Shown here: in pieces, positions 2 to 46,636 of the stretch | How the letters are laid out: every line of letters starts with the position of its first letter | Numbering within the stretch: position 1 is the stretch's first letter | The notes under the pieces: model-generated | The model's input: only the letters and a program-made list of their open reading frames with translations | Told to the model about the DNA's origin: nothing | Databases searched by the model: none | Made by a program: the position numbers and the translations under genes | Source: a virus | Virus record (IMG/VR): IMGVR_UViG_3300009159_008491 | Span: 1-64,000 of that record | Length of the DNA: 64,000 nucleotides | Strand: one strand, 5' to 3'

Positions 2-1309
2 GCAGGAAGTAGAGGAACATCTGGATCATCCGGAAGTTCTGGTAGTGCAGGTAGTTCAGGTTCTGCAGGTAGCGCAGGATCAAGTGGTAGTGCAGGTAGT
101 TCAGGAAGTTCTGGTGCTAATGGAACATCTGGTTCAGCAGGTAGTGCAGGAACTAGTGGTAGCTCAGGAAGTAGAGGCACATCTGGTTCATCAGGAAGTT
201 CAGGATCAAGTGGTAGTGCAGGTAGTGCAGGTACATCTGGTAGCTCAGGTAGCTCAGGTGGTTCAGGTAGTGCTGGTGCTGATGGTTCATCTGGTACAGC
301 AGGTAGTTCTGGTATATCAGGTATGGATGGTTCTAATAGTGGAAGATGGATATTTACTGACGTAAATGGAACCTCTCCAGTAGATCCGCAGGCAAATAAC
401 TTTGTTTCTAATAATGGTGATGGAAATACTTTAGCTAGTACTTCACAATTATCAATCAATATAGCTTCTCAAGGTGGAGTAAATTATTATTCATGGCTTA
501 GTGCTATGAAGACTTTAAGAGATGTAGGAAATACAGTCTATCTTCAAATTTATGAGGTATCAGACACTAAAAATTTACTTATATGGGAAATAGATACTAT
601 ACAAGATGCTACAACTTATTTTAATATTAATCGTGGTCTTGTATTAGCCGCAAATGGCACGTGGACAAACGATAAAATCTATACTATTTCATTTGTTGCT
701 AACGGATTAAATGGTTCATCAGGAAGTTCAGGGGAAGCTGGATCATCAGGTAGTGCAGGAACTAGTGGTAGCTCAGGAAGTAGAGGCACATCTGGTTCAT
801 CAGGAAGTTCAGGATCAAGTGGTAGTGCAGGTAGTGCAGGTACATCTGGTAGCGCAGGAAGTTCCGGTGCTAATGGTACATCCGGTAGTGCAGGTTCATC
901 TGGTTCTGCAGGAAGTGCAGGTTCTAGTGGTAGTTCAGGTGGCACAGGTACATCAGGTAGTTCAGGAAGTTCTGGTGCTAATGGCACATCAGGTAGTTCA
1001 GGAAGTTCTGGTGCTAATGGCACATCAGGTAGTTCAGGAAGTTCTGGTGCTAATGGCACATCAGGTAGTTCAGGAAGTTCTGGTACATCAGGTTTAGCAG
1101 GAAGTGCAGGTTCTAGTGGTAGTTCAGGTGGCACAGGTACATCAGGTAGTTCAGGAAGTTCTGGTGCTAATGGTACATCAGGTAGTGCAGGTTCATCTGG
1201 CTCTGCAGGTAGTTCAGGTTCATCTGGTAGTTCAGGTGCAAACGGTACTTCCGGTAGTTCAGGAGCATCTTATCAACAAATGTTAATAATAGCCTCATTA
1301 GGAGTATAA
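2..1309 (+). CDS. Collagen-like Gly-Ser/Ala/Thr-rich fibre protein, 5'-partial
   Basis: Frame of ORF 323..1309 is open back to base 2 (AGSRGTSGSSGSSGSAG...); Gly every third residue; ~120-aa globular insert; hydrophobic C-terminus QQMLIIASLGV. Confidence 0.85.
   Translation, partial: AGSRGTSGSSGSSGSAGSSGSAGSAGSSGSAGSSGSSGANGTSGSAGSAGTSGSSGSRGTSGSSGSSGSSGSAGSAGTSGSSGSSGGSGSAGADGSSGTAGSSGISGMDGSNSGRWIFTDVNGTSPVDPQANNFVSNNGDGNTLASTSQLSINIASQGGVNYYSWLSAMKTLRDVGNTVYLQIYEVSDTKNLLIWEIDTIQDATTYFNINRGLVLAANGTWTNDKIYTISFVANGLNGSSGSSGEAGSSGSAGTSGSSGSRGTSGSSGSSGSSGSAGSAGTSGSAGSSGANGTSGSAGSSGSAGSAGSSGSSGGTGTSGSSGSSGANGTSGSSGSSGANGTSGSSGSSGANGTSGSSGSSGTSGLAGSAGSSGSSGGTGTSGSSGSSGANGTSGSAGSSGSAGSSGSSGSSGANGTSGSSGASYQQMLIIASLGV
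138..853 (+). repeat. 107-bp exact direct repeat (138-244 and 747-853) flanking the globular domain of the fibre gene
   Basis: caggtagtgcaggaactagtggtagctcaggaagtagaggcaca...catctggtagc is identical in both copies; offset 609 bp (in frame). Confidence 0.9.
974..1081 (+). repeat. 3 x 36-bp perfect tandem repeat (GANGTSGSSGSS)
   Basis: ggtgctaatggcacatcaggtagttcaggaagttct at 974, 1010 and 1046; also a ~77-bp duplication at 908-984 / 1097-1173. Confidence 0.92.
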
Positions 1310-1328
1310 AATATAATATAATAAAAAT

Positions 1329-2234
1329 ATGATATTAGATTCAACAACAGACGCATTAAATGTTTTTTTATCAGGTAATGTGCAAACTTCTCAACTTGAT
1401 GTTTGCTCTGCTTATAATATTATTACTTCAACATCTTTGACTCCTGCTAAAATTCAAAATACCACAAGTGATTTAGCTCCAATAAATATTTTACCTCCTC
1501 CAAGTTCTGGACAACAAACTCAATTAAGATTTTGTTCAATATATAATGCAGATTCAACTAATGCTACTGTTACAATTGAATATACAGGAAATACAGGAAG
1601 ATCTATAATTTTTCTATCAAGTATTGATCCCGGAGACTCAGTTCAATATACACAAAATAGAGGATGGAGAACTTTTGGTGCCATGGGTCAAGAAAGAATA
1701 TTGGGTATGAATGATGCTCCCGGAGAATTAAGATTACCTCCTAATCTTAAACCGGTAGGTGTAACAGATATATTAACTTGTACAAGTGGTACAGATTATG
1801 GTTTTTATTTAGGTAAAGCGGATAGACCTTATTCTAATATAAAAATAAGATATAATGTTACTAATAGTCCCACTTCAATAACTTGGGCAGAAGCTGCTAT
1901 TTATAAAACATTTATAAAATTGGCTTCTGCTACAACAGTTGTTAATTATTGTGGTTTTGTAAGTATTTCAACTGATATTGGTACAACGGGAAATAAAACT
2001 GCAACAATAAATGTTACAGGAATTACAGAAAATGATGATTTATTTCTTGTTATAGGATCTGTTTTTGGGGCTGGTACATTCGCTGTAAGAGCAGGAATAC
2101 CAGATATTATAAGTACAGGTAGTGTTGGGTCAGTTGCAGGAAGTTTAAGACCATCAACAAATACGAGTTTGACATTAACAACGTCAGCAGCTCTTAATCA
2201 TGCTTGGGTTGCTTGGCAAGGATCTCAATGGTAA
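1329..2234 (+). CDS. Putative fibre-associated/tip protein, paralogue 1
   Basis: Beta-rich, Thr/Ser-rich; shares MILDxTTD, QLRFCSxYN, YLGKADR, ITWAEAAIY and GSLRPSTN with the next three ORFs. Confidence 0.6.
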   Translation: MILDSTTDALNVFLSGNVQTSQLDVCSAYNIITSTSLTPAKIQNTTSDLAPINILPPPSSGQQTQLRFCSIYNADSTNATVTIEYTGNTGRSIIFLSSIDPGDSVQYTQNRGWRTFGAMGQERILGMNDAPGELRLPPNLKPVGVTDILTCTSGTDYGFYLGKADRPYSNIKIRYNVTNSPTSITWAEAAIYKTFIKLASATTVVNYCGFVSISTDIGTTGNKTATINVTGITENDDLFLVIGSVFGAGTFAVRAGIPDIISTGSVGSVAGSLRPSTNTSLTLTTSAALNHAWVAWQGSQW

Positions 2235-2246
2235 AAAAATATAAAT

Positions 2247-3182
2247 ATGATATTAGATACAACAACGGATTCTATAGAAGTAAAATTAGCAGCCGCACAT
2301 ACAACAAGGGCTTTGCAATTTTATGCTTCATATCATATTATTGATTCAACTAGTTTTATATTTACTCCAACCAAAAATTTCGGTTCAACAAATGGTACAA
2401 CTGCAGTAACAATGGTTCCTGCTCCAACCTCTAGTAAATTAAATCAATTAAGATCTTGTTCAGTTTATAATTGTGATTCAATTGATCATACGGTTACAAT
2501 TCAAATAAATTCATCATCTAATTTGAGAACAGTATATTCTGTTATAATTAAAGTAGGAGAACAAATTCAATTTACACTTTATGAAGGATGGAAAATATTT
2601 AATGTGGATGGAATTTTAAAAACTTCTAGTTCTGTAATTGGGGGTCCTGCAGTAAAACAAAGTATAATACCAAACTTTCAAGGCACTGCAGGAGGTACTT
2701 CACAAACAAGTGGAACAGATTTTGCTTATTATCTAGGAAAAGCAGATAGAAGTTATGACTCTGTAACTGTACAGATAAATGTTACTTCTGCTGTTGTTGG
2801 AGCAATAACATGGGCAGAAGCTGCGATATATAAAGGATACCCATCAATTGGAAGTAATGTAACACTTACAAGATGTGGTTTTGTTGATGTTTCCACTGGC
2901 TCCAATCATGGTGTGAATGCAACTGGTAATAAAACAATCGTTATACCAATAACAGATAAGAATTTATTTGTTGGTGATGATATATGGTTTGTTTTTGGGT
3001 GTGTAGTTGCAACTACAGGTCCAGCTTTCAAACATATAGGTTATGCAGATAATATAGGTTCTGGTATTGTACAAAGTGCAACTGGAAGTTTAAGACCATC
3101 AACAAACTCAAGTATATCATTTACTTTATCTACAACAATATTAACAATATTTGCTGCATGGTACGGAGCACAAAACGTATAA
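2247..3182 (+). CDS. Putative fibre-associated/tip protein, paralogue 2
   Basis: Same family motifs; very similar to paralogue 3. Confidence 0.6.
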   Translation: MILDTTTDSIEVKLAAAHTTRALQFYASYHIIDSTSFIFTPTKNFGSTNGTTAVTMVPAPTSSKLNQLRSCSVYNCDSIDHTVTIQINSSSNLRTVYSVIIKVGEQIQFTLYEGWKIFNVDGILKTSSSVIGGPAVKQSIIPNFQGTAGGTSQTSGTDFAYYLGKADRSYDSVTVQINVTSAVVGAITWAEAAIYKGYPSIGSNVTLTRCGFVDVSTGSNHGVNATGNKTIVIPITDKNLFVGDDIWFVFGCVVATTGPAFKHIGYADNIGSGIVQSATGSLRPSTNSSISFTLSTTILTIFAAWYGAQNV

Positions 3183-3186
3183 AAAA

Positions 3187-4122
3187 ATGACATTAGATAC
3201 AACAACAGATTCAATAGAAGTAAGATTAGCAGCCGCTCATACAACTAGAGCTTTGCAGTTTTTTGCTTCTTATACCAACCTTAATGTTTCTAGTGCTACG
3301 AATACTCCAACAAAAAACTTTGGTTCAACAAATGGCACAACTGCAGTAACAATGGTTCCTGCACCAACTTCTGGAGTAATAAATCAACTAAGATTTTGTT
3401 CAGTTTATAATTGCGATTCTGTTGATCATACGGTTACAATTCAAGTAAATTCATCATCTAATTTGAGAACAGTATTTTCTGTTATAATTAAAGTAGGAGA
3501 ACAAATTCAGTTTACACTTGGCGAAGGTTGGAAAATATTCAATGTGGATGGTATTTTAAAAACTTCCAATTCCACTATCGGCACTTCAGCAGTAAAGTCT
3601 GCAGCTTCTATTTTCAATCAACAAGCAAGTGTTAATTCATCATATACTTCAGGTACTGATTATGCTCAATATTTGGGCAAAGCAGATAGGAATTATGATA
3701 CAGTAACAATTCAATTGGATATTCCAAACATAGTTGGTGCAACCATAACATGGGCTGAGGCTGCAATATACAAGGGTTATCCATCCATAGGAAGTAATGT
3801 AACGCTCACAAGGTGTGGTTGGGTGGATATTTCTACTGGAACAAATCATGGTGTTAATAGTACCGGAAATAAAACTATTGTAATTCCAATAATAGATAAC
3901 AATTTATTTGTTGGAGACGAAATTTGGTTTGTTATTGGATATGTTAATACCGGCGGTTCAGGTACATTAAGGATTGGTTCTTTAGGAGACAATATTGGAG
4001 CCGGTTTGGTACAGACAGCCACCGGAAGTTTAAGACCATCAACCAATTCAAGCATATCTTTCGCCATATCTTTAACACGTGCACCAATATTTGTTACATG
4101 GCAAGGTACTCAAAATGTTTAA
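3187..4122 (+). CDS. Putative fibre-associated/tip protein, paralogue 3 (start corrected to ATG 3187)
   Basis: MTLDTTTDSIEV aligns with MILDTTTDSIEV of paralogue 2; ATG follows an A-run just after the previous stop. Confidence 0.65.
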   Translation: MTLDTTTDSIEVRLAAAHTTRALQFFASYTNLNVSSATNTPTKNFGSTNGTTAVTMVPAPTSGVINQLRFCSVYNCDSVDHTVTIQVNSSSNLRTVFSVIIKVGEQIQFTLGEGWKIFNVDGILKTSNSTIGTSAVKSAASIFNQQASVNSSYTSGTDYAQYLGKADRNYDTVTIQLDIPNIVGATITWAEAAIYKGYPSIGSNVTLTRCGWVDISTGTNHGVNSTGNKTIVIPIIDNNLFVGDEIWFVIGYVNTGGSGTLRIGSLGDNIGAGLVQTATGSLRPSTNSSISFAISLTRAPIFVTWQGTQNV

Positions 4123-4143
4123 AATTAAAAACAATAATAAAAA

Positions 4144-5055
4144 ATGGTAATAGACAATACAAACGAAACTATAGAACTTGTTTTAGCTGGTGCAGTAACA
4201 ACTAGCCAAGCAACTTTTACTTGTTCTTTTAATGAAATTTCATCTACAACTTTTACAGGAAATGAAACAAATGGTACAAGTAATAATACCACTGCAGTTA
4301 CATTGATTTCTAGTCCTTCAGCTGGATTTCAAAGACAATTGAGGGAGTTAATAATTGAAAATAATGACACCGCAACTATGACTGTTACCATTAGATATAA
4401 TAATACATCAGTAACAAGAATTATAATGAAGGCAATTATTGATTCTGGTGATAGTTTAACTTATACAGCAGATGGTGGATGGAATTGTAAAAATACAAAT
4501 GGCTCAATTAGGTATTATAATATTCATGTAAATCAAACAGGCAATATTAGAGGTCCTGAATATTTTAATTTAGCTACTTCAGCTAGTAGTGTTTCGCTTT
4601 CAACTACTGTTGTTGGTCAATATTTAGGTAAGGCGGAAAAAGCATACGCTTCAATAGATTTCAGATACCAAGTAGATACGGCAGCTGTTACAATAACTTT
4701 TTGTGAACTTGCTGTGTATAGAATATCAAATAGACTTAGTATAGGAACTCAACAAGTATGGACTAGATTAGGTTATACAGATACATCAGGAATTTGGAAT
4801 AGTACTGGCTTAAAAACAACTAACGTTGCTCTTACAGGATGTAGAACTGGTGATGATTTATATGCAATTTGGGCAAGTAATGCTACAACATCAATGGCAC
4901 CAAGAGGTGGCAACATAGCTGATCCAACATCATCTATTCTACAAACAACAACAAATACTGTTTCAAGTTGGAGGCCTAGTACATCTCCTTTATATCAAGC
5001 AACAAGTTTTACAGCAGCTGCAGCTGCTATATGGTTTAATTGGCAAGGCAATTAA
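4144..5055 (+). CDS. Putative fibre-associated/tip protein, paralogue 4 (most divergent)
   Basis: MVIDNTNETIE, RQLRE, YLGKAEK, ITFCELAVY, WRPST motifs. Confidence 0.6.
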   Translation: MVIDNTNETIELVLAGAVTTSQATFTCSFNEISSTTFTGNETNGTSNNTTAVTLISSPSAGFQRQLRELIIENNDTATMTVTIRYNNTSVTRIIMKAIIDSGDSLTYTADGGWNCKNTNGSIRYYNIHVNQTGNIRGPEYFNLATSASSVSLSTTVVGQYLGKAEKAYASIDFRYQVDTAAVTITFCELAVYRISNRLSIGTQQVWTRLGYTDTSGIWNSTGLKTTNVALTGCRTGDDLYAIWASNATTSMAPRGGNIADPTSSILQTTTNTVSSWRPSTSPLYQATSFTAAAAAIWFNWQGN

Positions 5056-7418
5056 ATAAACTTGCTCAATTTATCTATTACTGTATTTGATTTTATAGAT
5101 TTAGTACATTCAAATTGTCTTGAAGTTCCTTTGTGTCTTGGGCACCAATTCCAATCTGATGGATCTAAACGAAAATCATTAAAACAACCATTACATGTAT
5201 TTATTGGATCGTTGACAAATATTCTTTCGCAATCTGTCATTTCACAATTAGGTCTTGAAAATCCACTTATTAAAAATATTTTTTTATCAAGTGCCCACGC
5301 AACCCATGAAAGACCACTTCCAAGACCAATAAACCCTTCAGAATGATATAAAATGTTACATATTTCTTTTATAGATTTATCATTAATTTTAATTACTCCT
5401 TTAGGATTTTTATTTCCCATATAATCATCTGGTTCTTTAGAAAGTAAAAGAACATCATAACCTTTTGATTTTATGTAATCAACAACTTCCTGCCATCCAT
5501 TAGGATTGTTCCAATATTTTGCTTGAGCTGTTGAGTGGTTAGCTATACAAAAATATTTATTTTCTATTGGTCTTTCACTTGGAATAAAATCAATTTTTGG
5601 TTTTACTTCTTTAAAATCTAATCCAAGAATATCTGTTGCTGTTTTTTGTAAATGTTGATCTCTAAAGTTTAAGGGATTTTTACTAGAAACAAATTCATTT
5701 TTATCATCATAAAACCATCCAATAGTAAACATTTTATATAAGTTGTGAACTATGGATCCGGGTTTAACAAATTCTATTTCAGGATAATTTTTTTCAAAGA
5801 AATCATTATGGAATGTAGAACAAATAACTTTTGCATTATGTGTTTTCCTAAATTCATCAACTTGTGGAAACCATGCAATAGTATCTCCTAAGGAAGAAGA
5901 ATCTAAATGTATATATACTCTTTGGTTTTCAAAAGAAGGTTTTAAAATATGTTTTTCATTTTCTACTTTATATTCAATAAAAAAATCTCTATGATATTCT
6001 CTATTTAATTGACCAAACATATTATTTTTTAAAGTCGTTTCATATAAAAGATTTTTTGTTTCTTCATCAAAGAATCTAAATTTCACTTCTGTTTGATCAT
6101 CACATTCTAAATTAATTTTAGGTTCTTTAAAATAGTTTAAGCTAACTTCAACATTTTTTTTCTTTTTGGTTTTACTTAAAATGGGAGATTCTTTATAACC
6201 GTTAAGTAAAATATCTTTAAATTCTGTTTGATTGTTATCAATTTTCATAATATTGTTAGTTGAATTTAATTCTATAAATATTGCTCTGTGGTCTTGGTAA
6301 TTGAAATATATTGGACTTTTACTTTTAATTTTTTCAACAATTTCTTCAAGATTGTTTTTGCCAGATCTATTATTGTTTTGTAGGTGAGTATTATCACAAA
6401 AATAATTGATTATACAATTTATTTTCTTGGCAATATTCAAAATTTTATCACCATTATCAAATGAATTTATTCTTATGAATGCATAATCTAATTCAATAAA
6501 TTCATCTAAGAAAATATCATGGTCAAAAAATAAAACTTTTAATTTTTCTAACTGCTTTTGATCATAATGAAAATTAAAAAATCCAACTTTGCATCTTTTG
6601 TTTTCCCAGTTTAATTTACTTAAATATGTTGATTCGGCAGCTTCGTATACATCATCAAAAAAATCATTTTTTCTTGGGTAAATTAAGTTTAGTTTTTTTC
6701 TTCTTTCTTTTGCTTCTTTGATTAATATTACTTCTCCTCTAATGTTCCAGTTTCTAAAATTTTCTGAATCCCAATGTTGTCTTGCTAAATAAGTTGTTCT
6801 AGGAATTGTTAACCATTTCCCTTTTTCTTCAAGGTTGATAAGCCACTGAGCATCATTTGATGTACAAACATCACTGTCTTCATGAACTTTAAAATTTAAA
6901 TTTGGTATATTTCTAAATATTCTTAGATAACCAAAAATTCCACTTCTATCAGGTGTCAATCTTTCAAAGGCCTCTAAAAAAGAATCATTATCTCTTGAAA
7001 TATAAACATTGTTTATAAATGAATTAAGAAAGTTATCTTTTGAATCAGGAAGGTTATCTTGATGTTTATTGGCATTAAAATGTAGAAAAATTACATCTGG
7101 AAACTTTTTAAAATAATAAACTATTTTTTCAAATGTATTTGGTAATATCTTATCATCTCCGTCAATAGGACAAACAATATCTCCCTTTGCGTGTAATTGA
7201 GGGTTCCACCAAATTTCTTTTTTATAATTAGGCTCTACGATTTTTATTCTTTTATCATGGTTGGCTAATGCTATAAGTTTTTCTTTTGTTTTATCAGTAG
7301 AAAAATCATCAGCTATAATCCATTCCCAATCTTTATAAGATTGACTTAAAATAGATTCAGATAATTCTTTGATGTAATTTTCTGAGTTGTAAAAAGAAGT
7401 TACGATTGATAATTTCAT
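5052..7418 (-). CDS. GT2 glycosyltransferase fused to an Aah/TibC-like (BAHT) O-heptosyltransferase
   Basis: N-term SIVTSFYN..ADDFSTD..IDGDD (GT2); C-term SSLGDTIAWFP..F, STAQAKYWNNP.GW, FIGLGSGLSWVAWA and iron finger CNGC...WCPRHKGTSRQFECT characteristic of TibC/Aah. Confidence 0.85.
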   Translation of the reverse strand: MKLSIVTSFYNSENYIKELSESILSQSYKDWEWIIADDFSTDKTKEKLIALANHDKRIKIVEPNYKKEIWWNPQLHAKGDIVCPIDGDDKILPNTFEKIVYYFKKFPDVIFLHFNANKHQDNLPDSKDNFLNSFINNVYISRDNDSFLEAFERLTPDRSGIFGYLRIFRNIPNLNFKVHEDSDVCTSNDAQWLINLEEKGKWLTIPRTTYLARQHWDSENFRNWNIRGEVILIKEAKERRKKLNLIYPRKNDFFDDVYEAAESTYLSKLNWENKRCKVGFFNFHYDQKQLEKLKVLFFDHDIFLDEFIELDYAFIRINSFDNGDKILNIAKKINCIINYFCDNTHLQNNNRSGKNNLEEIVEKIKSKSPIYFNYQDHRAIFIELNSTNNIMKIDNNQTEFKDILLNGYKESPILSKTKKKKNVEVSLNYFKEPKINLECDDQTEVKFRFFDEETKNLLYETTLKNNMFGQLNREYHRDFFIEYKVENEKHILKPSFENQRVYIHLDSSSLGDTIAWFPQVDEFRKTHNAKVICSTFHNDFFEKNYPEIEFVKPGSIVHNLYKMFTIGWFYDDKNEFVSSKNPLNFRDQHLQKTATDILGLDFKEVKPKIDFIPSERPIENKYFCIANHSTAQAKYWNNPNGWQEVVDYIKSKGYDVLLLSKEPDDYMGNKNPKGVIKINDKSIKEICNILYHSEGFIGLGSGLSWVAWALDKKIFLISGFSRPNCEMTDCERIFVNDPINTCNGCFNDFRLDPSDWNWCPRHKGTSRQFECTKSIKSNTVIDKLSKFI

Positions 7419-7419
7419 G

Positions 7420-8349
7420 TTATATTAATTTACTTACTGTGGTACTTTCTTCTAAAAATTTTTGTGTATTTGAATCATATAAATCTACATCCATATAAAG
7501 CATATTGTTTCCGAATATTTTTACATAATGTGTGTTTTTTTTAAGTTTAATTAAATTAAAATTTCCACTTTCTAACCAAAAATTATATACATTGCTATCT
7601 TCTATTATATTAAAAATCATAGGTTCTTTTGAATAGTTATAACATAAAACATAATAATCGCCATTGTGTGGAAAAACTATGCCCCAGTAAAGAAAATCTC
7701 CTGAGCATAATCCGGTTGAAAAATTTTCATTAGTAGCTATTAAATTAAAATCTTTCTTATATACATTATTCTTAAGAAATCTAGTGTGTAAAAATTCTTC
7801 ACATAAAATATCTAAATTTTCTAATAATTTATTTTCGTCATATAAAAAGTCAGAATAATTTAATTTATTTAAGTTAATACATAAATAATTACCACTCATC
7901 CATTCTTGATTAAAGTATCCAACAGCATTATAATTAGAACTTCTTAAAATATTTAAATTTTCATTAAACTCTTTTATGCTTGATATTTTACTATCGTATT
8001 CAACATAATGTACAACATCGTATTTTAAAGTTTTTGCCATTGTGAATCCATTAAATAAAATTCTCATTACAGCTAAAAAAGTATTTTGTCTAGCCGGTAA
8101 CTTAGATGCAAGATCTACTAATTGACTAGAAAAACTTGAATATCCAATATATTTTTTATCAGTTAATAATTTATTTTCTTTATCATATATGAAGTAATCA
8201 CATTTTCTTAAAATTATTTCTTCTGGAGCTATATGAGAACTAATCATTACTTCTTTTCCATTTTCTTTGAAAAAATTAACTAAATCTAACAATAGATCTT
8301 TTTTTTCTTTCGTATTTGAATAGTCTCCTATTAAAATTAAATCTTTCAT
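7420..8349 (-). CDS. Hypothetical protein in glyco operon (possible GT-A-like)
   Basis: 309-aa ORF coupled within the operon; YDVVHYVEYD resembles a DxD-type strand. Confidence 0.5.
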   Translation of the reverse strand: MKDLILIGDYSNTKEKKDLLLDLVNFFKENGKEVMISSHIAPEEIILRKCDYFIYDKENKLLTDKKYIGYSSFSSQLVDLASKLPARQNTFLAVMRILFNGFTMAKTLKYDVVHYVEYDSKISSIKEFNENLNILRSSNYNAVGYFNQEWMSGNYLCINLNKLNYSDFLYDENKLLENLDILCEEFLHTRFLKNNVYKKDFNLIATNENFSTGLCSGDFLYWGIVFPHNGDYYVLCYNYSKEPMIFNIIEDSNVYNFWLESGNFNLIKLKKNTHYVKIFGNNMLYMDVDLYDSNTQKFLEESTTVSKLI

Positions 8350-8350
8350 A

Positions 8351-8902
8351 CTAACTCAAATAAATGTTTTTTCTTTTTTTAATAAATTTGATTGGTGTTC
8401 CAGCAACAACATCAAATGGATTTGTATTTTTGTTTACTAATGAATTTGAGCCAACTGAAGTAGCAAATTCTAAAACAGTTTCAGGTAAAATAACAGTATT
8501 GCATCCTATAACTACGTGTTTTCTTATTAGAATATCACCAGTTTTAACTTTTTTAAATTCATCAGCAACAACGGAATTTGTCATATACCCTTCCGTATAA
8601 TCATCATTAGATGTATACAATATGCAACGAGCAGAAGTACAAGTATAATCTTCTAATGTTATATTACCACTATTACCATAATAATAACAACCTGCAGAAA
8701 TATGAACATTATTACCTATAGATATTTTACTATCTTTTCCTGCAATCAAAATACATTGTGAATCTATTCTTACGTTATTACCTATAGTGATGTTTTGAGG
8801 GTTATGAAATATAACATCGTTAGAAATAAAAACATTTTCACCAATAGTTAAATTTGATTCCAAAAGTTCTTCTCTAGAATAATTTTTGAATGTTCTGATC
8901 AT
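8351..8902 (-). CDS. Hexapeptide-repeat (LbH) sugar acetyltransferase
   Basis: IGENVFI/IGNNVRI/IGNNVHI repeats; VVAGTPIKFIKKR C-terminus. Confidence 0.9.
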   Translation of the reverse strand: MIRTFKNYSREELLESNLTIGENVFISNDVIFHNPQNITIGNNVRIDSQCILIAGKDSKISIGNNVHISAGCYYYGNSGNITLEDYTCTSARCILYTSNDDYTEGYMTNSVVADEFKKVKTGDILIRKHVVIGCNTVILPETVLEFATSVGSNSLVNKNTNPFDVVAGTPIKFIKKRKNIYLS

Positions 8903-9528
8903 TGTTTATAGATTTCAAATTTTGATAAATCAGGATAAGGCAATTCTAAATCAGGATTGTTTTTTGGACTTCCGTCTATATTATAAAATTGATTCATTAA
9001 CAAACATCCTCTTGCAGCTAATTCAGGCATCATATAAAAATTCCAACCAAGCATGTCAAAGTGATCATCATGATATGAACACTCTCTCCTACCGCTATAC
9101 CTAGCTCTTTTAAACCATAAATAAGCTTCGTAGTTATCAGTTAGTATTGCACCGCCTTTTGATAATTTAAAGTGCTTATAGGGGCCTGTAAAAGAAATAC
9201 ACATATGTTGTCCGGGTATGTACATATCTGATGTAAATCTAAGTGCTGAATCCCAAACATTAGTAGGTTCTAATTGATAAGCCCCTTTAATTGTTTTGCC
9301 TTTTACTGGTTTAAATTTAACTTTAGCTCCAGCATGAATAATTTCACAAGGAACAGAAGGATAAGTTCTTGATGGAATTGTTATTTCTGTGTCTTTGACT
9401 TTTTCAAACATTAGTGCTAAGAATAAAGCATTGCTTTGGTTGTCAACAGTAACACAATAAGGTGCCCCAGTGTAATCACACAGCATTTTTTCAAAATCTT
9501 CAGTAATTTTATAAATTCCGTTTGCCAT
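8899..9528 (-). CDS. Short DegT/DnrJ/EryC1/StrS-like PLP protein
   Basis: FEKMLCDYTGA..TVDNQSNAL, WDSA, SFTGPYKH..GGAILTD; only 209 aa. Confidence 0.8.
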   Translation of the reverse strand: MANGIYKITEDFEKMLCDYTGAPYCVTVDNQSNALFLALMFEKVKDTEITIPSRTYPSVPCEIIHAGAKVKFKPVKGKTIKGAYQLEPTNVWDSALRFTSDMYIPGQHMCISFTGPYKHFKLSKGGAILTDNYEAYLWFKRARYSGRRECSYHDDHFDMLGWNFYMMPELAARGCLLMNQFYNIDGSPKNNPDLELPYPDLSKFEIYKQ

Positions 9529-9529
9529 A

Positions 9530-12500
9530 TTATAAATTATATTTAGTTCTATTGTATTCTTTATTTCTTAATAAATCGTTCAACTCTAATCCAAATTGAG
9601 TAAACTCTCCATTTCTAGCGATTCCGTATTGATAGTACCATGAATAATCTAAGTGATAAATCTTTGGATCATCATATTTCTCGTTTATTCTTTTTGTACC
9701 TTCAAATTCATTTTTCCAAGGATTCTCATTTTCAGTCATATTTTCTAAAAGAAAATCTTTATTCCAAAAGCAAGCATTGTGTGAAAGTAGATATTCACTA
9801 TTAATCTTTTGTTTTAAAACTCTTTTATCATTGATAAAATAATTAGTTTGTTCTAGATCATAATTAAAGAATGTTTTTTCGTGAATTTTTAAACAGTTCC
9901 ATTCAAAGTGTTTCATTAAATACAAACTATCTTCAAAAGTCTTTTTATCTATTTTTTTGTGTAACCACATATCATCTTGAATATACAAGATGTATTTAGT
10001 TTTTATTTTAGTTAAAATATCAATCAATCTATTACTGAAACCAGATGAATCATGTGATCTAATTGTATTTAATTGTTTAATTCTGCTATCGCTAAAATTT
10101 AATTTTTCTTCTTCATTACAGAAATAAATGTCCCAGTTTAATGACCAATCCCAATTTTCTTTAAATGAATAATACCAACCTTTCCATAGAAAATTATATT
10201 TGTCACACGTTTGAACTATTACAGTAATATCGTCATTCTCAAAATTTACCGGTAATGAATTTTTTTCATGTAAAATATATCCATCTTTAAATTTATAATC
10301 TATGTTTGATATACTAGGATATTGTAATGCATAAGGTCTACTGAAAATTCCCTTTTTAAAATCAGTGATAAAATTATTATACCATAAATCAGAAACGTCC
10401 CAAGGAGTATTTTCAAATTTTGATTTGAAATAATCGTATTTATCTTTTAAAATTAAAATACAATGTGCTTCAGAAAGTGTATTTGTCAAATAAAAATCCT
10501 CCTCTACTTTTTCATGATCTAAATTAGGTATCTTTTTCCCAAAACTTATATAGGCTAAATCATGTTTTTTCGCATATTGGTAAGCTCTAAAAATAGTTTC
10601 AGACATTTCTTTTTCTGAAAACTGTAAAATACTATCACACTCATTTAAAAGTATTGCATCCACATCATCATTTAAACCTTCTTCTATTCCTTGTCTATGA
10701 GAAAGGTAACAACCGTAATGTCCGGGGCCTAATAAGTAATCTCCCGGTGATTCAGAAATTTGACTTGGTCTATTACAATTTTCTTTAGGTGGCAATCCCT
10801 TAAATAAGGGATTTATAATTTGTTGATAGGTGAAACCATAATTTTCTAATGTTCTTAAAGAGTTGATAGAAGATATTTCTCTTTCCGATTCAACATTGTT
10901 CAGAAGATGAACTATTTTAATTTTTGGTTTTTTTTCTGCTTTAAAAATTAGAATACTTTCAATATCAATATTTCTATCTTCTTCAACTTCAAATCCACAA
11001 CGAATTAATTTGTTCTTAATTTTATTTTCATAGTCAGAATGTGATCCTGCAAATGCGTGAACTTCTCCGGTAATGAATTTGACATTATTTCTTAAATAAC
11101 CTTCATCTATGGTTTCAAAGAAAGGAAACTCTCCTCCTTCACAATCAATTTTAAGATAATCTATTTTTTCAATGCTATATTCTTGAATTAAAGAATTGGC
11201 ATCAATTGATTTAACTTTTATAGAATTATCTTCAAATTTATATCCAGAAAGATTTTCACTTTGTTTAAATATAGTATGTATACTAGATGAATCACCAACG
11301 AAGAAATCAACTTCTCCTCTGTTATAATCTATTGCATATTGTATAGGTATAATTTCTTTGAATTGAAAAGTATTCTTTTTTAAATTTTCAAAGTTTTTTG
11401 GTTCTGGTTCTACACTATAAACTTTAGAAGCCCCTTGATCAAGAGCATATAAACTGAGAAATCCTAAATTAGATCCAATATCTAAAACCACATCCCCTTT
11501 TTTAATTCCTTTATAATCATTTCTTATGTAAACTTCATAGTAAGTAAACCATGAGGATTGATCAAAATCTTCATGAGAAATCATAATTTCTTTACTTTCT
11601 ACTTTTGGTGTTAATTTATGTTCGAAATTATTCTCAAAAATTACTTTATCAAAGTATGAGATATTATTTTCTTTATCAAAAACTTGAACCAGAAAACCAT
11701 TAAATGTATATCTTGAAGCATTGGAACTAAACCAAAAACTTGTTCCTGATTGAAAAATAAAATCAAGAACATAATTTGTCAAAAGATTATAACTGTCTTT
11801 TAAAATAATGTTTAATTTTTTCCCATTTAGTTCAGGACAATGCAAACATTTAACATCAAATTTATGATCTATTTCATTATAAGAAACATCAATGTAATTA
11901 TATTTGAGTCGTAGGTTTAATGTTTGTTTTATTAACTCTAAATTAGTATTAGTATCAAGTAAATAATTTACATTGTCAAATTTGTAAAAATAATTTTGAT
12001 AAACATCTAAATTATATAATAAGATAGGGATCTTCCATCCTATTGATTCTCTCAATACTAAAGGCATTGTTTCTTTATCACCATTTTGGCCTCTGGAAGT
12101 AAAAAGAAACAAATCCATACAAGAGTAAAAATTATCAGTATCATTTCTTTCGCCCCAAATTTTGCAATTTGAAGGTATATTATTAAGCAATGGTTCCCAA
12201 TAAAATTTAAAATTATCTGCTTGATTTCCTAGAAAATGAAATTGTACAGTATCATCAAAATATTTAGCTAATTCAAATATTTCAGCCTGATTTTTTCTTG
12301 GAGTAAATAAACCTACATTTAAAACATGTTTCTTTTTAGGGTCCAATCCTAACTTTAATAATCCTTCTTCTCTATTTGGTCTTTCCTTGTATTCAATAGG
12401 GTATTCTGCTAAGTATTTAGGAACATTTATATTTTTATATTGTTCTATTTGCCAATTGCTTACAAAGAAAAAAGCATCCGGAAAATATACTTTTTTATTA

Positions 12501-12871
12501 TCAGGATCAAATGAAGAATCATGGCTTGTTTCAAAGATCTTATATTTTCTATTTTTTGTATAAATTAAATCTGAAATTTCACTTGGTAAAAAATATTCTG
12601 GTATTTCTTCTAAATGAATAAAATCAGGATTAATTTTGTTAATTAAATTTATTAAATCTTCTTTTTTATTTTCTCCTAGAGTTATAAAATGTTGATTATC
12701 AAGAAGTTGTTCAATTTTATTTCTTTGTACTACTAATACCCCACCAGTTATATTTTCATATTCAATGCAAAAGATTTCTAAATCATTTTTTAGAATTTCT
12801 ATTTTTTTAACAAGATATTGAGGTAAGCCACCAGTAGATAAATGTGGAGCAATAAATATAATCTTCTTCAT
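9530..12871 (-). CDS. Multidomain enzyme: GT4 (GT-B) + FkbM methyltransferase + GT25-like + GT-A domains
   Basis: HLSTGGLPQY, NVGLFTPRKNQ, ETMPLVLRE; VLDIGSNLG..VEPEP..LKIDCEGGE; GCYLSH..NECD; ILYIQDD. Confidence 0.85.
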   Translation of the reverse strand: MKKIIFIAPHLSTGGLPQYLVKKIEILKNDLEIFCIEYENITGGVLVVQRNKIEQLLDNQHFITLGENKKEDLINLINKINPDFIHLEEIPEYFLPSEISDLIYTKNRKYKIFETSHDSSFDPDNKKVYFPDAFFFVSNWQIEQYKNINVPKYLAEYPIEYKERPNREEGLLKLGLDPKKKHVLNVGLFTPRKNQAEIFELAKYFDDTVQFHFLGNQADNFKFYWEPLLNNIPSNCKIWGERNDTDNFYSCMDLFLFTSRGQNGDKETMPLVLRESIGWKIPILLYNLDVYQNYFYKFDNVNYLLDTNTNLELIKQTLNLRLKYNYIDVSYNEIDHKFDVKCLHCPELNGKKLNIILKDSYNLLTNYVLDFIFQSGTSFWFSSNASRYTFNGFLVQVFDKENNISYFDKVIFENNFEHKLTPKVESKEIMISHEDFDQSSWFTYYEVYIRNDYKGIKKGDVVLDIGSNLGFLSLYALDQGASKVYSVEPEPKNFENLKKNTFQFKEIIPIQYAIDYNRGEVDFFVGDSSSIHTIFKQSENLSGYKFEDNSIKVKSIDANSLIQEYSIEKIDYLKIDCEGGEFPFFETIDEGYLRNNVKFITGEVHAFAGSHSDYENKIKNKLIRCGFEVEEDRNIDIESILIFKAEKKPKIKIVHLLNNVESEREISSINSLRTLENYGFTYQQIINPLFKGLPPKENCNRPSQISESPGDYLLGPGHYGCYLSHRQGIEEGLNDDVDAILLNECDSILQFSEKEMSETIFRAYQYAKKHDLAYISFGKKIPNLDHEKVEEDFYLTNTLSEAHCILILKDKYDYFKSKFENTPWDVSDLWYNNFITDFKKGIFSRPYALQYPSISNIDYKFKDGYILHEKNSLPVNFENDDITVIVQTCDKYNFLWKGWYYSFKENWDWSLNWDIYFCNEEEKLNFSDSRIKQLNTIRSHDSSGFSNRLIDILTKIKTKYILYIQDDMWLHKKIDKKTFEDSLYLMKHFEWNCLKIHEKTFFNYDLEQTNYFINDKRVLKQKINSEYLLSHNACFWNKDFLLENMTENENPWKNEFEGTKRINEKYDDPKIYHLDYSWYYQYGIARNGEFTQFGLELNDLLRNKEYNRTKYNL

Positions 12872-12950: not shown

Positions 12951-13832
12951 TTATTCTGTAATACCGAGAGAAATTTGTGAAAATTCTTGATTAAAGTTTG
13001 TAATTGATCTTTGCTCCCTCACATCAATATTTCCATATTCAAAAGCAGATTTTCTTGTAAATAGATTATATTGCTTATAGATTAAATTTTGATCGTTGAA
13101 ATAAGTTAAAATTCCTGTTTGTAAATCTCTTGAGGAGTTTCCATAAAGAGCATAGGAAAGAGTTTTAATGGTTTGATCAACCATTTCAATTTCAACATAA
13201 AAAGGATCAAAAAAAGTATTAGAAATTAATATTTTTTGGTTTTTTACACCAAGATCTACTTTCACATTGTTTGAAATTAAACTTCCTTGATCCGGAGTCA
13301 AAGTTAAAAATATTATACTTCCAGCAGGGTCTAAAACATAAGTGGTTGCACCTTGATTTACTGTATTATTATTAACGTTTATACTTACTAAATCACTTGA
13401 AGTTATAATTCTGGTAAGATTATTTATTTTAACCCCATTTGTATCAAAATATTCTATTTGGTACCCTACTAATGAATTGTTTCTAGAAAATTGAAGAGAA
13501 GGAATAACAATGCCCTTTTTTGATATATTTAACTGATTATTATCGTTTGTTACAACATAAGAACAGTCTAAAATGGTAGTTTGAAAAGTTTTTGGTTTAA
13601 TTAAAATACTATAATAACCTAATTTATTGAATACATTAGCTGGTAAACGTAATTTATACATTCCATCGGCTCCAATTAATTTTCTTAAATCTGCATTGGT
13701 TATAGCGTTAAAAAGTGGTCTTAATTGTACGTCCCCAATTTCTTCTCTTGAGGGACTATAAGCATAAAGGATGTCCACATCATCTATTGTGACATCAGCT
13801 AATTTATTTACACCATATAATCCAACTGCCAT
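12951..13832 (-). CDS. Putative virion structural protein
   Basis: 293-aa beta-rich ORF at the end of the tail operon; TATTTAT motif upstream. Confidence 0.5.
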   Translation of the reverse strand: MAVGLYGVNKLADVTIDDVDILYAYSPSREEIGDVQLRPLFNAITNADLRKLIGADGMYKLRLPANVFNKLGYYSILIKPKTFQTTILDCSYVVTNDNNQLNISKKGIVIPSLQFSRNNSLVGYQIEYFDTNGVKINNLTRIITSSDLVSINVNNNTVNQGATTYVLDPAGSIIFLTLTPDQGSLISNNVKVDLGVKNQKILISNTFFDPFYVEIEMVDQTIKTLSYALYGNSSRDLQTGILTYFNDQNLIYKQYNLFTRKSAFEYGNIDVREQRSITNFNQEFSQISLGITE

Positions 13833-16400: not shown

Positions 16401-16401
16401 C

Positions 16402-37188: not shown

Positions 37189-38172
37189 TTATCTATAAGA
37201 TTTTTTTCCTTGTAAAACATCTAACCAATGATCACACATTTCATGTAAAAGTGTTTCAAAATAATACTCTGGTTCCCAATTTAATATTTTTCTTGCTTTT
37301 GAAGAATCTCCTTTTAAATAAGGTAATTCTTCTGGCCTTAAATATTTTGCATCTTGTTTTATAACAATAGGATCAATATCAAGATAATTACAAACAATGT
37401 TGCACATTTCTCTTACCGTATGTGTTTGCATTGTAGAAATTACAAAATCATCCGGTTCATTATGATTTAACATTAAATGCATTGCTTTCACATAATCTTT
37501 TGAATGTCCCCAATCACGATATGAGTCCATGTTTCCTAAAAATAATTCTTTTTGTAATCCAAGTTTAATTGAACATAATCCTTTTGCAATTTTACTTGAA
37601 ACGAAATTACTACCTCTTCTTGGCGATTCATGATTAAATAGAATTCCATTAGAAATAAATAAGTTATAAGCCCTTCTATAATGCCTAGTGATATTATAAC
37701 CAAAGACCTTGGAACATCCATATGGAGAAACAGGATTCATAATGGTTTTTTCTCTTTGAAATCCATCTTCATCTATGGTTAAACCAAACATCTCAGAAGA
37801 ACTTGCTTGATAAAATTTTGCTTCAGGACAATTTTCTTTATAGGCTTCTAAAACATTTAACACGCCAAGAGCATTTATTTCTACTGTTAAATTTGGAATA
37901 TCACTAGATATTCTCACATGACTTTGTGCAGCTAAATTATAAATTTCATCAGGCTTTATTTTTGACAATAAATTATTTAAAGAATATTGATCAATTAGAT
38001 CGCCATAATGTATATTTATTTTATCTTCTATATGTTCTAATCTATAAGATTGATTTTCAGATACAGAGTGTCTTCTAACTATCCCATGAACCTCGTATCC
38101 TAAATTTAAAAGATGTTCAGAAAGATAACTTCCATCTTGACCTGATATTCCAGTTATAAAAGCTTTTTTCAT
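37189..38172 (-). CDS. gmd: GDP-mannose 4,6-dehydratase
   Basis: FITGISGQDGSYL, YNLAAQSHV, QASSSEMFG, SPYGCSK, GILFNHESPRRG, RDWGH. Confidence 0.96.
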   Translation of the reverse strand: MKKAFITGISGQDGSYLSEHLLNLGYEVHGIVRRHSVSENQSYRLEHIEDKINIHYGDLIDQYSLNNLLSKIKPDEIYNLAAQSHVRISSDIPNLTVEINALGVLNVLEAYKENCPEAKFYQASSSEMFGLTIDEDGFQREKTIMNPVSPYGCSKVFGYNITRHYRRAYNLFISNGILFNHESPRRGSNFVSSKIAKGLCSIKLGLQKELFLGNMDSYRDWGHSKDYVKAMHLMLNHNEPDDFVISTMQTHTVREMCNIVCNYLDIDPIVIKQDAKYLRPEELPYLKGDSSKARKILNWEPEYYFETLLHEMCDHWLDVLQGKKSYR

Positions 38173-38780
38173 ATATTTTTTTTAAAAATTTTCATTTGTG
38201 TTAAATCGGGCCAATCGGTGAATACCCATTGTCTTGGTTTCTTCTCAATCGCTTCAGGTAATTTTTCAATACCCATTTTAGCAGTTTCAGGTGTCATATA
38301 ATAATGGTAACCTACTGATTCAATATTTTGCTCTCTCCAAGGTATGTTAGGAATTCTTCCGTCATAAGACATTTTTTTTAAACTTATTGCAGCAGTTTCA
38401 TCATTTGTTAATATTATACCCCCTCTTCCTAAGTTCAAATGCTTTTGAAATTGAAAACTAATACACATAAAAGTATTCGGTATATAACTATCTTTTTTCC
38501 ATAAAACAGCGGAATCAATTATGTTTTCTGTAACATAATAAAAATTACTCCATTCCTCATCCCTCCAATCTAAATCAATTTTAAGTTTGTGTGATAAAAA
38601 TGGAATTGAAAGATAGGTTCTTTTTGGTGTACTAATTTTTTTTGCTTCTGTATACAATAAACATAATTCTATTCCATGTGTACAACTATCTACAGCAATA
38701 GCGTATTTTGAACCAAAGAATTCAGCAATTTTACTTTCAAATTCAGAAACAACATTAAAATCAACTTTTTTTAATATCAT
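38169..38780 (-). CDS. Short DegT/DnrJ/EryC1/StrS-like PLP protein
   Basis: FESKIAEFFG..AVDSCTHG, IDSA, SFQFQKHL..GGIILT; 203 aa. Confidence 0.8.
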   Translation of the reverse strand: MILKKVDFNVVSEFESKIAEFFGSKYAIAVDSCTHGIELCLLYTEAKKISTPKRTYLSIPFLSHKLKIDLDWRDEEWSNFYYVTENIIDSAVLWKKDSYIPNTFMCISFQFQKHLNLGRGGIILTNDETAAISLKKMSYDGRIPNIPWREQNIESVGYHYYMTPETAKMGIEKLPEAIEKKPRQWVFTDWPDLTQMKIFKKNI

Positions 38781-38784
38781 ATTT

Positions 38785-39324
38785 TCATTTTTTTACACAT
38801 TCAATATTTAAACTTATTAATACACCATTTTCTTTGTCCATATGAGGAATATACGCCTGAGAATGATCATCATAATTAGCATGTTCTGTGTTCCTCCAAT
38901 CATATCTTTCTATTTGATAAAATCCACTTTGTTCTAGTAAGTCAAATAGTGAATTAAAATCATATGTGGTTTTATGGTATATGTTTGAATTTCCCATTGA
39001 CATTTTTCCATAAAGTGGACCTAAAATTTGATTTAAAGAAACAATTTTGTTTAAATATAATTCTGACATTTTTTCAAAATCAGGAACTGCAATTCTTAAT
39101 GTTTTTTCCGGCTTTAAAACTCTTTTCCACTCTTTTAAAATATCTAAAATTTCGACTCTATCAAAATATTCTATAACATGTGATGAGTAAATTAAATCTA
39201 CAGAATCATCATCAAATGGCAATTTTGTAATATCATTATAATCTAAATGATCATAGGTTCCACCATCTATATGAATCCAATCTTTGCCAAAATTTCTCCA
39301 GCCACACCCTAAATGTAATTTCAT
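38785..39324 (-). CDS. SAM-dependent methyltransferase (type 11)
   Basis: KLHLGCG, LPF.DDSVDLIYSSHVIEY, RVLKP..LRIAVPD. Confidence 0.88.
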   Translation of the reverse strand: MKLHLGCGWRNFGKDWIHIDGGTYDHLDYNDITKLPFDDDSVDLIYSSHVIEYFDRVEILDILKEWKRVLKPEKTLRIAVPDFEKMSELYLNKIVSLNQILGPLYGKMSMGNSNIYHKTTYDFNSLFDLLEQSGFYQIERYDWRNTEHANYDDHSQAYIPHMDKENGVLISLNIECVKK

Positions 39325-39325
39325 A

Positions 39326-40048
39326 TTATTTTTTTTTAGTTAAATTATTTATAACATTTATTATAAAACAAATTGTTATAATTATAAAACTAATAAAAAA
39401 AGATAATTTTTGCAACCCTAAAATTGATAAAAATATTAATATTGTAAAAGTTCCTGTTCCAAAATATTTTATTAATTCAATTGATTTGAAAATTTTTTTG
39501 TTTTCTATTTTGTAGAAGAAATAATAAAAAGAATAATAACAAATATTTTTAGAAAAAAAGTAATATCTATAAAACAATCCATTTTTTTGATTTTCTACTG
39601 ATTTACTTTTAAAAGAATTAGTTTTCTCAAAATTACTTACAGCATCAAGTGTTCCTATGTGTAGTAACATAGGAAATATGAATAGCAATATAGAGAAAAA
39701 AGCATAATAATCAGATTTTAAAAAAAATGTCAATAAGAATAGAAAGCCAACAATGTGATCTTTGTTCCAATCATATACTGCTCCAAAAAAAGAACATTCA
39801 TTATACTTTCTTGCAACTTGCCCATCAACACAATCTAAAACATAATAAATAAAATAAAAAATTACTGCAATTATTAAATGATTATATAAATAAAATACAG
39901 GTGATAAAAATGAAAAAAATAATGAAATTGTGGTTATGTTAGATGGCGATAAACCCATTTTATGTAATGGGTCTACAAGTATATTAGCTATTTTTCTAAA
40001 TATATATAAATCTAAAGGGTCTTCTAGGTTTTTGTTGTAACTTGGCAT
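39326..40048 (-). CDS. CDP-alcohol phosphotransferase (membrane protein)
   Basis: Signature D-x2-DG-x2-AR-x8-G-x3-D-x3-D (DCVDGQVARKYNECSFFGAVYDWNKD); several hydrophobic segments. Confidence 0.88.
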   Translation of the reverse strand: MPSYNKNLEDPLDLYIFRKIANILVDPLHKMGLSPSNITTISLFFSFLSPVFYLYNHLIIAVIFYFIYYVLDCVDGQVARKYNECSFFGAVYDWNKDHIVGFLFLLTFFLKSDYYAFFSILLFIFPMLLHIGTLDAVSNFEKTNSFKSKSVENQKNGLFYRYYFFSKNICYYSFYYFFYKIENKKIFKSIELIKYFGTGTFTILIFLSILGLQKLSFFISFIIITICFIINVINNLTKKK

Positions 40049-41831: not shown

Positions 41832-41895
41832 ATTTGATTAATATTATAATACTTTATAATAATAAGTAATTTTTAATCAAATGTAAATTTTTATT

Positions 41896-43597: not shown

Positions 43598-43603
43598 AAA
43601 TTA

Positions 43604-44158: not shown

Positions 44159-44160
44159 AA

Positions 44161-44748: not shown

Positions 44749-44749
44749 T

Positions 44750-45160: not shown

Positions 45161-45161
45161 T

Positions 45162-45869: not shown

Positions 45870-45912
45870 TTTTTAAAATTAATTTTGTTTAATCAAAAAG
45901 GAATAATAAAAA

Positions 45913-46623: not shown

Positions 46624-46636
46624 ATTATTAAAATGA

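Follow-up and report, generated by a model that had tools for sequence, protein, structure and literature searches.

TibC of E. coli, a member of the bacterial autotransporter heptosyltransferases (BAHT), transfers heptose from ADP-heptose to serine and forms a dodecameric ring; its Asp110 is the catalytic base, Thr226 and Lys230 are the ligands of the beta-phosphate, Cys339, Cys342, Cys358 and Cys370 make up the iron finger, Arg286, whose alanine mutant is inactive, reads the adenine N1 of ADP-heptose, and Pro300 is a determinant of heptose stereoselectivity (PMC4358343). In BclA from the Bacillus anthracis exosporium, the collagen-like stretch is densely O-glycosylated (PMC10050317). Glycosyltransferases encoded by mycobacteriophages have been described as glycosylating the virion proteins of the phages themselves (Freeman et al. 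2023, Cell Host Microbe, as cited in PMC12619734), and in the Megavirinae, such as Mimivirus, virus-encoded sugar-nucleotide pathways (aminotransferase, N-acetyltransferase, dehydratase) and glycosyltransferases coat the fibrils (PMC10117803, PMC8456856), the main fibril protein of Mimivirus being a GMC oxidoreductase (PMC11042495). The present analysis concerns a stretch of 64,000 nucleotides of phage DNA, positions 1 to 64,000 of the IMG/VR record IMGVR_UViG_3300009159_008491 (the window), in which a serine-rich collagen-like fibre gene converges on an operon ending in a gene for a fused GT2 and BAHT (TibC/Aah-like) glycosyltransferase. Judged from sequence comparison, the locus would encode, with moderate confidence, a cytoplasmic O-glycosylation by the phage of its own Ser-rich collagen-like fibre, primed by a BAHT of a separate viral clade and extended by the fused and the neighbouring glycosyltransferases.

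The fibre gene and the convergent GT2-BAHT gene

The genes and domains at the centre of this reading are the following.

2..1309, plus strand: collagen-like fibre protein, C-terminal part; the 5' end is missing, open at the contig start
5052..7418, minus strand: GT2-BAHT fusion enzyme of 788 amino acids; last gene of its operon, convergent with tip paralogue 4
5064..6089, minus strand: BAHT (TibC/Aah-like) domain, amino acids 444-785, by PDB 4rb4 and TIGR04414
6639..7418, minus strand: GT2 (GT-A) domain, N-terminal to BAHT, by PF00535

The open reading frame (ORF) at 2-1309 is matched by the Pfam family Collagen (PF01391) in six stretches, with E=3e-42 and 142.6 bits against a cut-off of 27.2, and contains 100 G-X-Y triplets of the types G-S-S, G-S-A and G-T-S, in which the X and Y positions are occupied by 64% Ser, 15% Ala, 10% Thr and 0% Pro; the helix-stabilising imino acids (Pro/Hyp) are absent from these positions. 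The Ser/Ala/Thr-rich, Pro-free Gly-X-Y fibre described in an earlier sequence-only reading of this DNA was confirmed in this way. The repeats of BclA are of the G-P-T type and contain proline. A globular domain of ~130 amino acids (about amino acids 106-235), which is also conserved in collagen genes at 21 further loci, splits the repeats, and the C-terminal tail reads QQMLIIASLGV. The orthologue in the related locus L006, of more than 1000 amino acids, has hundreds of triplets and globular inserts between a short globular N-terminus and a C-terminus as in the window. A wrong-strand artefact as the origin of the collagen ORF was considered and rejected, since the plus frame crosses the conserved non-repeat domain and its C-terminus is conserved. 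The full-length gene of L006 (13836-18760, minus strand) leaves its frame within the repeats, near 15.75-15.97 kb, from where a different frame leads into a beta-helix-like Asn-rich domain; this is either a repeat assembly error or a real frameshift. Beyond the window, the same phage (G000) has an ORF of 1401 amino acids (G000:C1:71718-75920, minus strand) with Ser-rich Pro-free collagen of 34 triplets and 57% Ser at X/Y.

The BAHT domain of the convergent enzyme was aligned with the TibC structure PDB 4rb4 over ~340 residues at E=3e-54, and it passes the curated NCBI equivalog TIGR04414 (hepto_Aah_TibC) at 294.8 bits (cut-off 200), amino acids 444-785 corresponding to the profile positions 28-372 of 374. 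The GT2 domain is matched by PF00535 over amino acids 4-128 (E=8e-20, 71.9 bits against a cut-off of 23.3) and by GT2 structures in the PDB at E of about 1e-5; for the linker, amino acids 261-445, Pfam gave only sub-threshold, presumably chance matches (E>=0.07). The functional residues of TibC map to D512 (Asp110), T630 (Thr226), K634 (Lys230), W705 (Trp305) and C742, C745, C759 and C771 (the iron finger). Among 55 distinct phage BAHT sequences, no variation occurs at the equivalents of Asp110, Lys230, Trp305 and the four Cys, and position 226 holds Thr 52 times and Ser 3 times; the invariance of the key residues across such divergent sequences argues for selection for catalysis. The domain is a true member of the family with its catalytic machinery intact, and it looks catalytically competent.

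The fusion of BAHT to GT2 was found only in the window and in the loci L006-8; elsewhere it is a GT4 that is fused, at times together with FkbM or another methyltransferase. In the loci compared, BAHT is always fused to, or located beside, GT4 and GT25-like domains together with tailoring enzymes, which fits a model of priming followed by elongation. The acceptor of the known BAHT enzymes is the passenger domain of an AIDA/TibA-type autotransporter encoded next to them. No AIDA-like autotransporter gene was found as a neighbour in the window or in the viral-clade loci, where a collagen-like fibre gene is found instead.

Co-occurrence and phylogeny of BAHT and collagen-like genes

The co-occurrence of BAHT-like genes with Ser-type collagen genes across phages, proposed as a test in the sequence-only reading, turned out to be positive in both directions. 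The base rate of BAHT, at least 142 contigs of about 2.9 million in IMG/VR, comes from a pattern-limited search and is a lower bound. The 80 IMG/VR loci kept for comparison formed, with three GenBank phages, 25 clusters at 80% identity, 15 of which encode a fused BAHT of at least 695 amino acids. A Ser/Thr-rich Pro-free (GXY)n ORF is located 48 bp to 4.7 kb off, in varied orientation, in 12 of these 15, and a thirteenth has Ser/Thr-rich Pro-free collagen runs further along the contig; at several loci the collagen gene is the immediate neighbour of BAHT (48-409 bp), and one collagen ORF near a fused BAHT has 3122 amino acids and 852 triplets. In the reverse direction, BAHT was present on 22 of 56 contigs (39%) seeded only on the collagen of the window, 12 times in the flank and 10 times elsewhere on the contig. 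It was also present, nearly always as a long fused ORF, on 12 of 44 contigs (27%) among the matches listed in IMG/VR for a generic (G-S/T-S/T)8 DNA pattern, a sample that is not seeded on the window sequence. The enrichment is several hundred-fold even if the base rate is tenfold too low. Both genes are carried by a cultured phage, the Microcystis phage Mel-JY01, in which a GT4-BAHT fusion is separated by about 1.7 kb from a Ser/Thr collagen-like ORF.

The remaining 10 of the 25 clusters encode a stand-alone BAHT of ~385 amino acids, with no collagen within 10 kb; because this class is a single clade, the contrast of 13/15 with 0/10 amounts to few independent events. The stand-alone loci have a fixed layout of a giant Thr/Gly/Ser-rich non-collagen fibre, GT4 and GT25-like genes, and BAHT, and the general module is a fibre gene with GT4/GT25-like and BAHT genes, in which collagen appears to have been the earlier partner. 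The giant fibre ORF of these phages (L042:1-6756 and its equivalents in L010, L015, L022, L037 and L041) exceeds 2200 amino acids, is built with internally duplicated segments of ~470 amino acids and is the gene directly upstream of GT4/GT25-like and BAHT.

In a quick maximum-likelihood IQ-TREE tree of 103 BAHT domains, rooted at the midpoint, a bacterial clade and a viral clade, the latter with all 28 collagen-linked rows, are set apart with 100% support. The bacterial clade, which includes a Salmonella Aah beside AIDA-I, has AIDA-like neighbours and keeps Arg286 in 42 of its 44 rows; within the viral clade, only a basal branch still has Arg286, and the stand-alone enzymes constitute one derived subclade. 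Of the loci from bacterial genomes, 51 (32-41% identity) have AIDA-like or giant autotransporter-type ORFs as neighbours and collagen in 0 of 51, and a small adjacent Gly-Ser/Thr collagen ORF was found in 4 of the 5 bacterial-genome loci that are nearest to or within the viral clade. On four beta/gamma-proteobacterial contigs of metagenome-assembled genomes (L264, L265, L267 and L268), a BAHT that is 45-54% identical to the phage enzymes adjoins very small Gly-Ser/Thr collagen-like ORFs of 12-19 triplets, and the BAHT of L264 and L267 falls inside the viral clade; these may be prophage remnants, phage contigs binned into such genomes, or a bacterial use of the pair.

Tip paralogues, tailoring genes and genome context

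The other features of the window that bear on the fibre and its presumed glycan are listed below.

1329..2234, plus strand: putative tip paralogue 1, with two all-beta domains
2247..3182, plus strand: putative tip paralogue 2, identified by alignment; orthologue at L006:11980-12915
3187..4122, plus strand: putative tip paralogue 3, a window-specific duplicate of paralogue 2; L006 has only three tips
4144..5055, plus strand: putative tip paralogue 4, 78% identical to L006:11053-11964
7420..8349, minus strand: orf309, a GT-A-fold candidate with an invariant E117-x-D119 and a C-terminal beta-sandwich
8351..8902, minus strand: hexapeptide-repeat sugar acyl/acetyltransferase (Pfam Hexapep, 7.7e-9)
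8899..9528, minus strand: 'mini-DegT' of 209 amino acids (Pfam DegT, PF01041, 5e-15)
9530..12871, minus strand: multidomain enzyme of 1113 amino acids, with GT4 (about amino acids 173-315), FkbM methyltransferase (464-628) and GT25-like (about 651-900) domains
12951..13832, minus strand: orf293, the first gene upstream of the glycosyltransferase operon; 88% identical and syntenic in L006-8
37189..52540, minus strand: second glycan block of ~20 co-directional genes, by Pfam

The four paralogues and the convergent operon after them are arranged as the sequence-only reading had described. Each paralogue has ~300 amino acids, with 29-38% identity to the first, and the fourth ends in a 4-nt overlap with the stop of the GT2-BAHT gene; no match to them was found in Pfam, PHROGs or NCBIfam. 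The AlphaFold model of the first (pLDDT, the predicted local distance difference test, of 71) has two beta domains, and in BFVD it is best matched by the non-collagen domains of 'collagen triple helix repeat' proteins from phages (E=3.5e-9, root-mean-square deviation of 1.5 A over 126 residues) and by phage minor tail or central fibre proteins. These structural matches suggest free-standing versions of the head domain that is fused to the collagen stalk in other phages, and 'tip' is a reasonable, if putative, label for them.

In the order of transcription, the operon comprises the 1113-amino-acid enzyme, the mini-DegT, the acetyltransferase, orf309 and GT2-BAHT; no membrane segment was found in any of its proteins (5052-12871), which fits a cytoplasmic protein glycosylation. 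Its ending in a GT2 and TibC/Aah-like fusion and its acetyltransferase and DegT-like genes agree with the sequence-only reading, the DegT-like protein being, however, of 209 amino acids only. From the GT4-FkbM-glycosyltransferase architecture proposed there for the large enzyme, the GT4 and FkbM domains were retained, and the third domain is only a divergent GT25-like one, the window copy of which remains below the cut-off of PF01755 (E=0.03, 14.6 bits against 24). Among the homologues of this domain, 12 of 16 match PF01755 (best 6e-6), and its profile matches in the PDB are to GT25 proteins only (E=0.14); the C-terminal region beyond it has an IQDD motif. Of the loci with BAHT or collagen, 75 have a GT4 homologue and 59 the GT25-like domain.

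The mini-DegT scores 56 bits against a cut-off of 19.8 and covers only the profile positions 24-98 of 360, short of a full-length fold-type I aminotransferase (a profile of about 360 amino acids); its PDB matches include perosamine synthetases. It has a paralogue within the window at 38169-38780 (29% identity, E=2e-26) and is 77-78% identical to homologues in the Flavobacterium phage immuto and in an unrelated IMG/VR phage group, which suggests a recent exchange between phages, since this identity is far above that of the rest of the genomes. The possibility of a broken gene fragment was rejected in view of the full-length paralogue and the 77%-identical orthologues in unrelated phages. The family, of ~205 amino acids (window 8899-9528 and 38169-38780; L001:15001-15645; L068:3767-4423), keeps the motif SF..KH..GG.ILT and lacks much of the DegT fold. 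The NCBIfam matches of the acetyltransferase, to WcaF and to the NeuD/PglB/VioB type, are all below the cut-off. For orf309 no match was found in Pfam, PHROGs, NCBIfam or a PDB sequence search; its N-domain occurs in 1-3 copies per locus, including inside the BAHT fusion proteins of L075, L063 and L057. In its model (pLDDT 61) residues 1-200 resemble GT-A/nucleotidyltransferase folds at Z of 8-9.5, values near the background of the aligner, and it is with low confidence a probable GT-A-fold enzyme.

Between the window and L006 the GT2-BAHT is 81% and the 1113-amino-acid glycosyltransferase 71% identical, whereas the cassette between these conserved genes (7420-9528 in the window, L006:4901-8663) is entirely different: mini-DegT, acetyltransferase and orf309 in the former, and a Polysacc_synt_2 dehydratase, a methyltransferase, an RmlD-like reductase and a protein of 493 amino acids without assignment in the latter. 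Such a cassette swap against an 81%-identical relative is expected of a diversifying surface glycan. The second glycan block encodes a GDP-mannose 4,6-dehydratase (at 37.2 kb), the second mini-DegT, at least four methyltransferases, a sulfotransferase, a membrane CDP-alcohol phosphatidyltransferase and GT25, DXD-type, GT1-like and GT2 transferases. It is likely a supplier of sugar nucleotides and of further tailoring steps, and it would feed the fibre operon; the dehydratase, mini-DegT and acetyltransferase together would fit an N-acetyl-perosamine-like route. A separate glycosyltransferase is encoded at 57256-58518 (plus strand), and the close relative G001 has four SDR genes at the place of the second block.

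The viral fragment whose first 64 kb make up the window has 93.8 kb and was estimated by CheckV as 32% complete; since G001 has 216.7 kb at 83% completeness, the phage is taken for a jumbo myovirus with a genome of around 260 kb. Compared with the baseplate wedge proteins of a 484-kb uncultured phage, Mel-JY01 and immuto, its own is 27-30% identical. Between the operon and the baseplate wedge gene, at 12951-25170 (minus strand), there are six ORFs (293, 842, 115, 1131, 1174 and 478 amino acids) for which no above-threshold family match was found, the 478-amino-acid ORF having a sub-threshold CBM96 match only. Among them, orf293 gave no match in Pfam, PHROGs or NCBIfam and is 88% conserved in L006, orf842 is only 33% conserved there, and for the ORFs of 842, 1131 and 1174 amino acids nothing was obtained from Pfam or PHROGs.

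Proposed function, alternative readings and known systems

According to the proposed mechanism, which would operate in the host cytoplasm late in infection, the BAHT domain with its base D512 would move the first sugar from a nucleotide sugar to the Ser hydroxyls of the G-S-S, G-S-A and G-T-S triplets, and possibly of other Ser/Thr-rich parts of the fibre; the GT2 domain, orf309 and the GT4-FkbM-GT25-like enzyme would then lengthen and methylate the glycan, and the mini-DegT and acetyltransferase, fed by the GDP-mannose 4,6-dehydratase, would give an acetamido-deoxy sugar. That the fibre accepts the glycan is inferred, and so are the sequence in which the enzymes act, the kinds of sugar and the advantage of a coat, be it protection, solubility or adhesion.

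Several points weigh against this proposal. The case is built on gene neighbourhood and homology, and a glycan has been observed on none of these fibres; the place of the collagen protein in the virion is itself deduced from repeat-driven PHROG hits and structural neighbours; the fibre gene is cut by the contig end, and the four tip genes stand between it and BAHT. TibC recognises its beta-helix passenger through the iron finger (PMC4358343), and as an acceptor a collagen chain is of quite another kind. Arg286, required in TibC, is replaced by Ile686 in the window enzyme and by residues other than Arg in 51 of the 55 phage enzymes (V in 31, L in 7, T in 6, A in 4, I in 3; R in 4), and Pro300 by Gly700. 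No genes of HldE type (PF01467, PF00294) or GmhA type (PF13580) were found in G000 or in the 83%-complete G001. The heptose named in the sequence-only reading is left unsupported by these findings, and a 'heptosyl' activity of the window BAHT is not established. The derived stand-alone subclade adjoins giant non-collagen fibres, so that collagen is not the sole partner. Furthermore, the complete small phages G004, G039 and G041 have similar Ser-rich Pro-free collagen ORFs and no BAHT, GT4 or GT2 (the comparison covered these three, and other glycosyltransferase families or host enzymes may act there), from which it follows that a phage-encoded glycan is not generally required for such fibres, contrary to the suggestion that it stabilises the Pro-free helix.

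In an alternative reading, the operon would glycosylate phage structural proteins, with other Ser/Thr-rich virion proteins (the tips, other fibres or head decoration) as the main targets instead of the collagen repeats and the adjacency of collagen due only to a shared late structural module. The pairing of stand-alone BAHT with giant fibres, the collagen of the small phages and the tips themselves, which contain 24-26% Ser+Thr and are located between the fibre gene and BAHT, would agree with it; however, the specific two-way enrichment is with Ser/Thr-type Pro-free collagen, which at several loci is the immediate neighbour, and the tips are limited to the window and L006-8, while BAHT with collagen is widespread, so that this explanation is considered unlikely. 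Still less probable is that the operon and the second block make or remodel a polysaccharide or a host envelope glycan (serotype conversion, superinfection exclusion, slime layer) that is not linked to protein. GT2, GT4, GT25, acetyltransferase and DegT are classic gene types of lipopolysaccharide and capsule synthesis, the second block contains the membrane CDP-alcohol phosphatidyltransferase, and phage immuto has a syntenic glycosyltransferase cluster without BAHT; but BAHT is a family of protein serine O-glycosyltransferases (PMC4358343), no flippase, polymerase, initiating phosphoglycosyl transferase or membrane segment was seen at 5052-12871, and the co-occurrence with collagen would be left unexplained. 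It is very improbable that BAHT is no transferase on the fibre at all and helps the fibre to trimerise as a ring-shaped chaperone or assembly factor, or that these are decaying genes: the dodecameric ring of TibC, which threads its substrate (PMC4358343), and the loss of Arg286 could be quoted in favour of this, yet the 55 phage sequences do not vary at the catalytic Asp, Lys230 and Trp305 and have Thr or Ser at position 226, all ORFs are intact, and fusion to other glycosyltransferases is the rule. DNA glycosylation was set aside, as BAHT is a protein O-glycosyltransferase family and its link is to a fibre gene.

Glycosylation of the collagen-like fibre by the phage remains the favoured explanation. 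If so, a second class of substrates would be added to the BAHT family, many large aquatic phages would make heavily glycosylated collagen-like fibres with their own enzymes, with consequences for their adsorption, protease or grazer resistance and recognition, and a compact enzyme-plus-repeat pair would be available for glycosylated collagen-like materials. A bolder and rather doubtful suggestion is that the viral BAHT clade switched its acceptor from autotransporter beta-helices to collagen-like fibres, and probably its donor too, given the loss of Arg286 and the absence of a heptose pathway, the fibres being mucin-like glycan brushes whose 'serotype' is diversified by cassette swaps; if true, this layer of phage-host and phage-environment interaction would be new to phage biology. 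The window adds the GT2-BAHT fusion, the tailoring cassette swapped against an 81%-identical relative and the free-standing tip domains, and the idea is directly testable because the cultured Mel-JY01 has both genes.

In the literature, no paper was found on BAHT in phages or on its occurrence together with collagen-like fibres, none that combines heptosyltransferase, phage, collagen-like and glycosylation, and none mentioning Mel-JY01. The statement of the sequence-only reading that no phage example had been characterised holds for this pairing, not for virion glycosylation as such, which the cited account already reports for mycobacteriophages. The likeness to the latter consists in phage-encoded glycosyltransferases acting on the phage's own virion proteins; as described in that account, the acceptors are, in contrast, the C-termini of capsid and tail-tube subunits, the glycosyltransferases are of other families, and no collagen-like fibre or BAHT is involved. 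The Megavirinae differ in being eukaryotic giant viruses, in a fibril protein without Ser-collagen and in that no BAHT has been reported for them. A similar phage cluster is that of Flavobacterium phage immuto (MW353175, genes 90-102), where GT4, mini-DegT (78% nucleotide identity), acetyltransferase, a gene of ~300 amino acids and GT2 follow in syntenic order, and the baseplate protein is distantly related (27% identity); unlike in the window, the BAHT domain was not found there, nor a collagen-like ORF in the 30 kb examined. BclA with the anthrose operon shares the trimeric collagen-like filament and a glycan with a tailored deoxy-amino sugar from a dedicated operon, but it is a bacterial spore system with glycosyltransferases of other families and no BAHT. 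Close to the window system are also TibC-TibA and Aah-AIDA-I of E. coli (TIGR04414; PDB 4RAP/4RB4), with which the window enzyme shares a homology over ~340 residues, the catalytic Asp, Thr/Lys, Trp305 and the four-Cys iron finger, as well as the arrangement of a soluble enzyme whose gene adjoins that of a long fibrous protein, repetitive and Ser-rich, which would receive many modifications on Ser before export or assembly. It differs from them in being phage-encoded and in a separate viral clade, in having as neighbour a collagen-like G-S-S fibre instead of a beta-helical autotransporter passenger, in Ile for Arg286, Gly for Pro300 and no heptose pathway in view, and in the fusion of its BAHT to GT2 (GT4 in other phages) within a multi-enzyme glycan operon, for which reason an oligosaccharide would be expected on the fibre rather than a single heptose.

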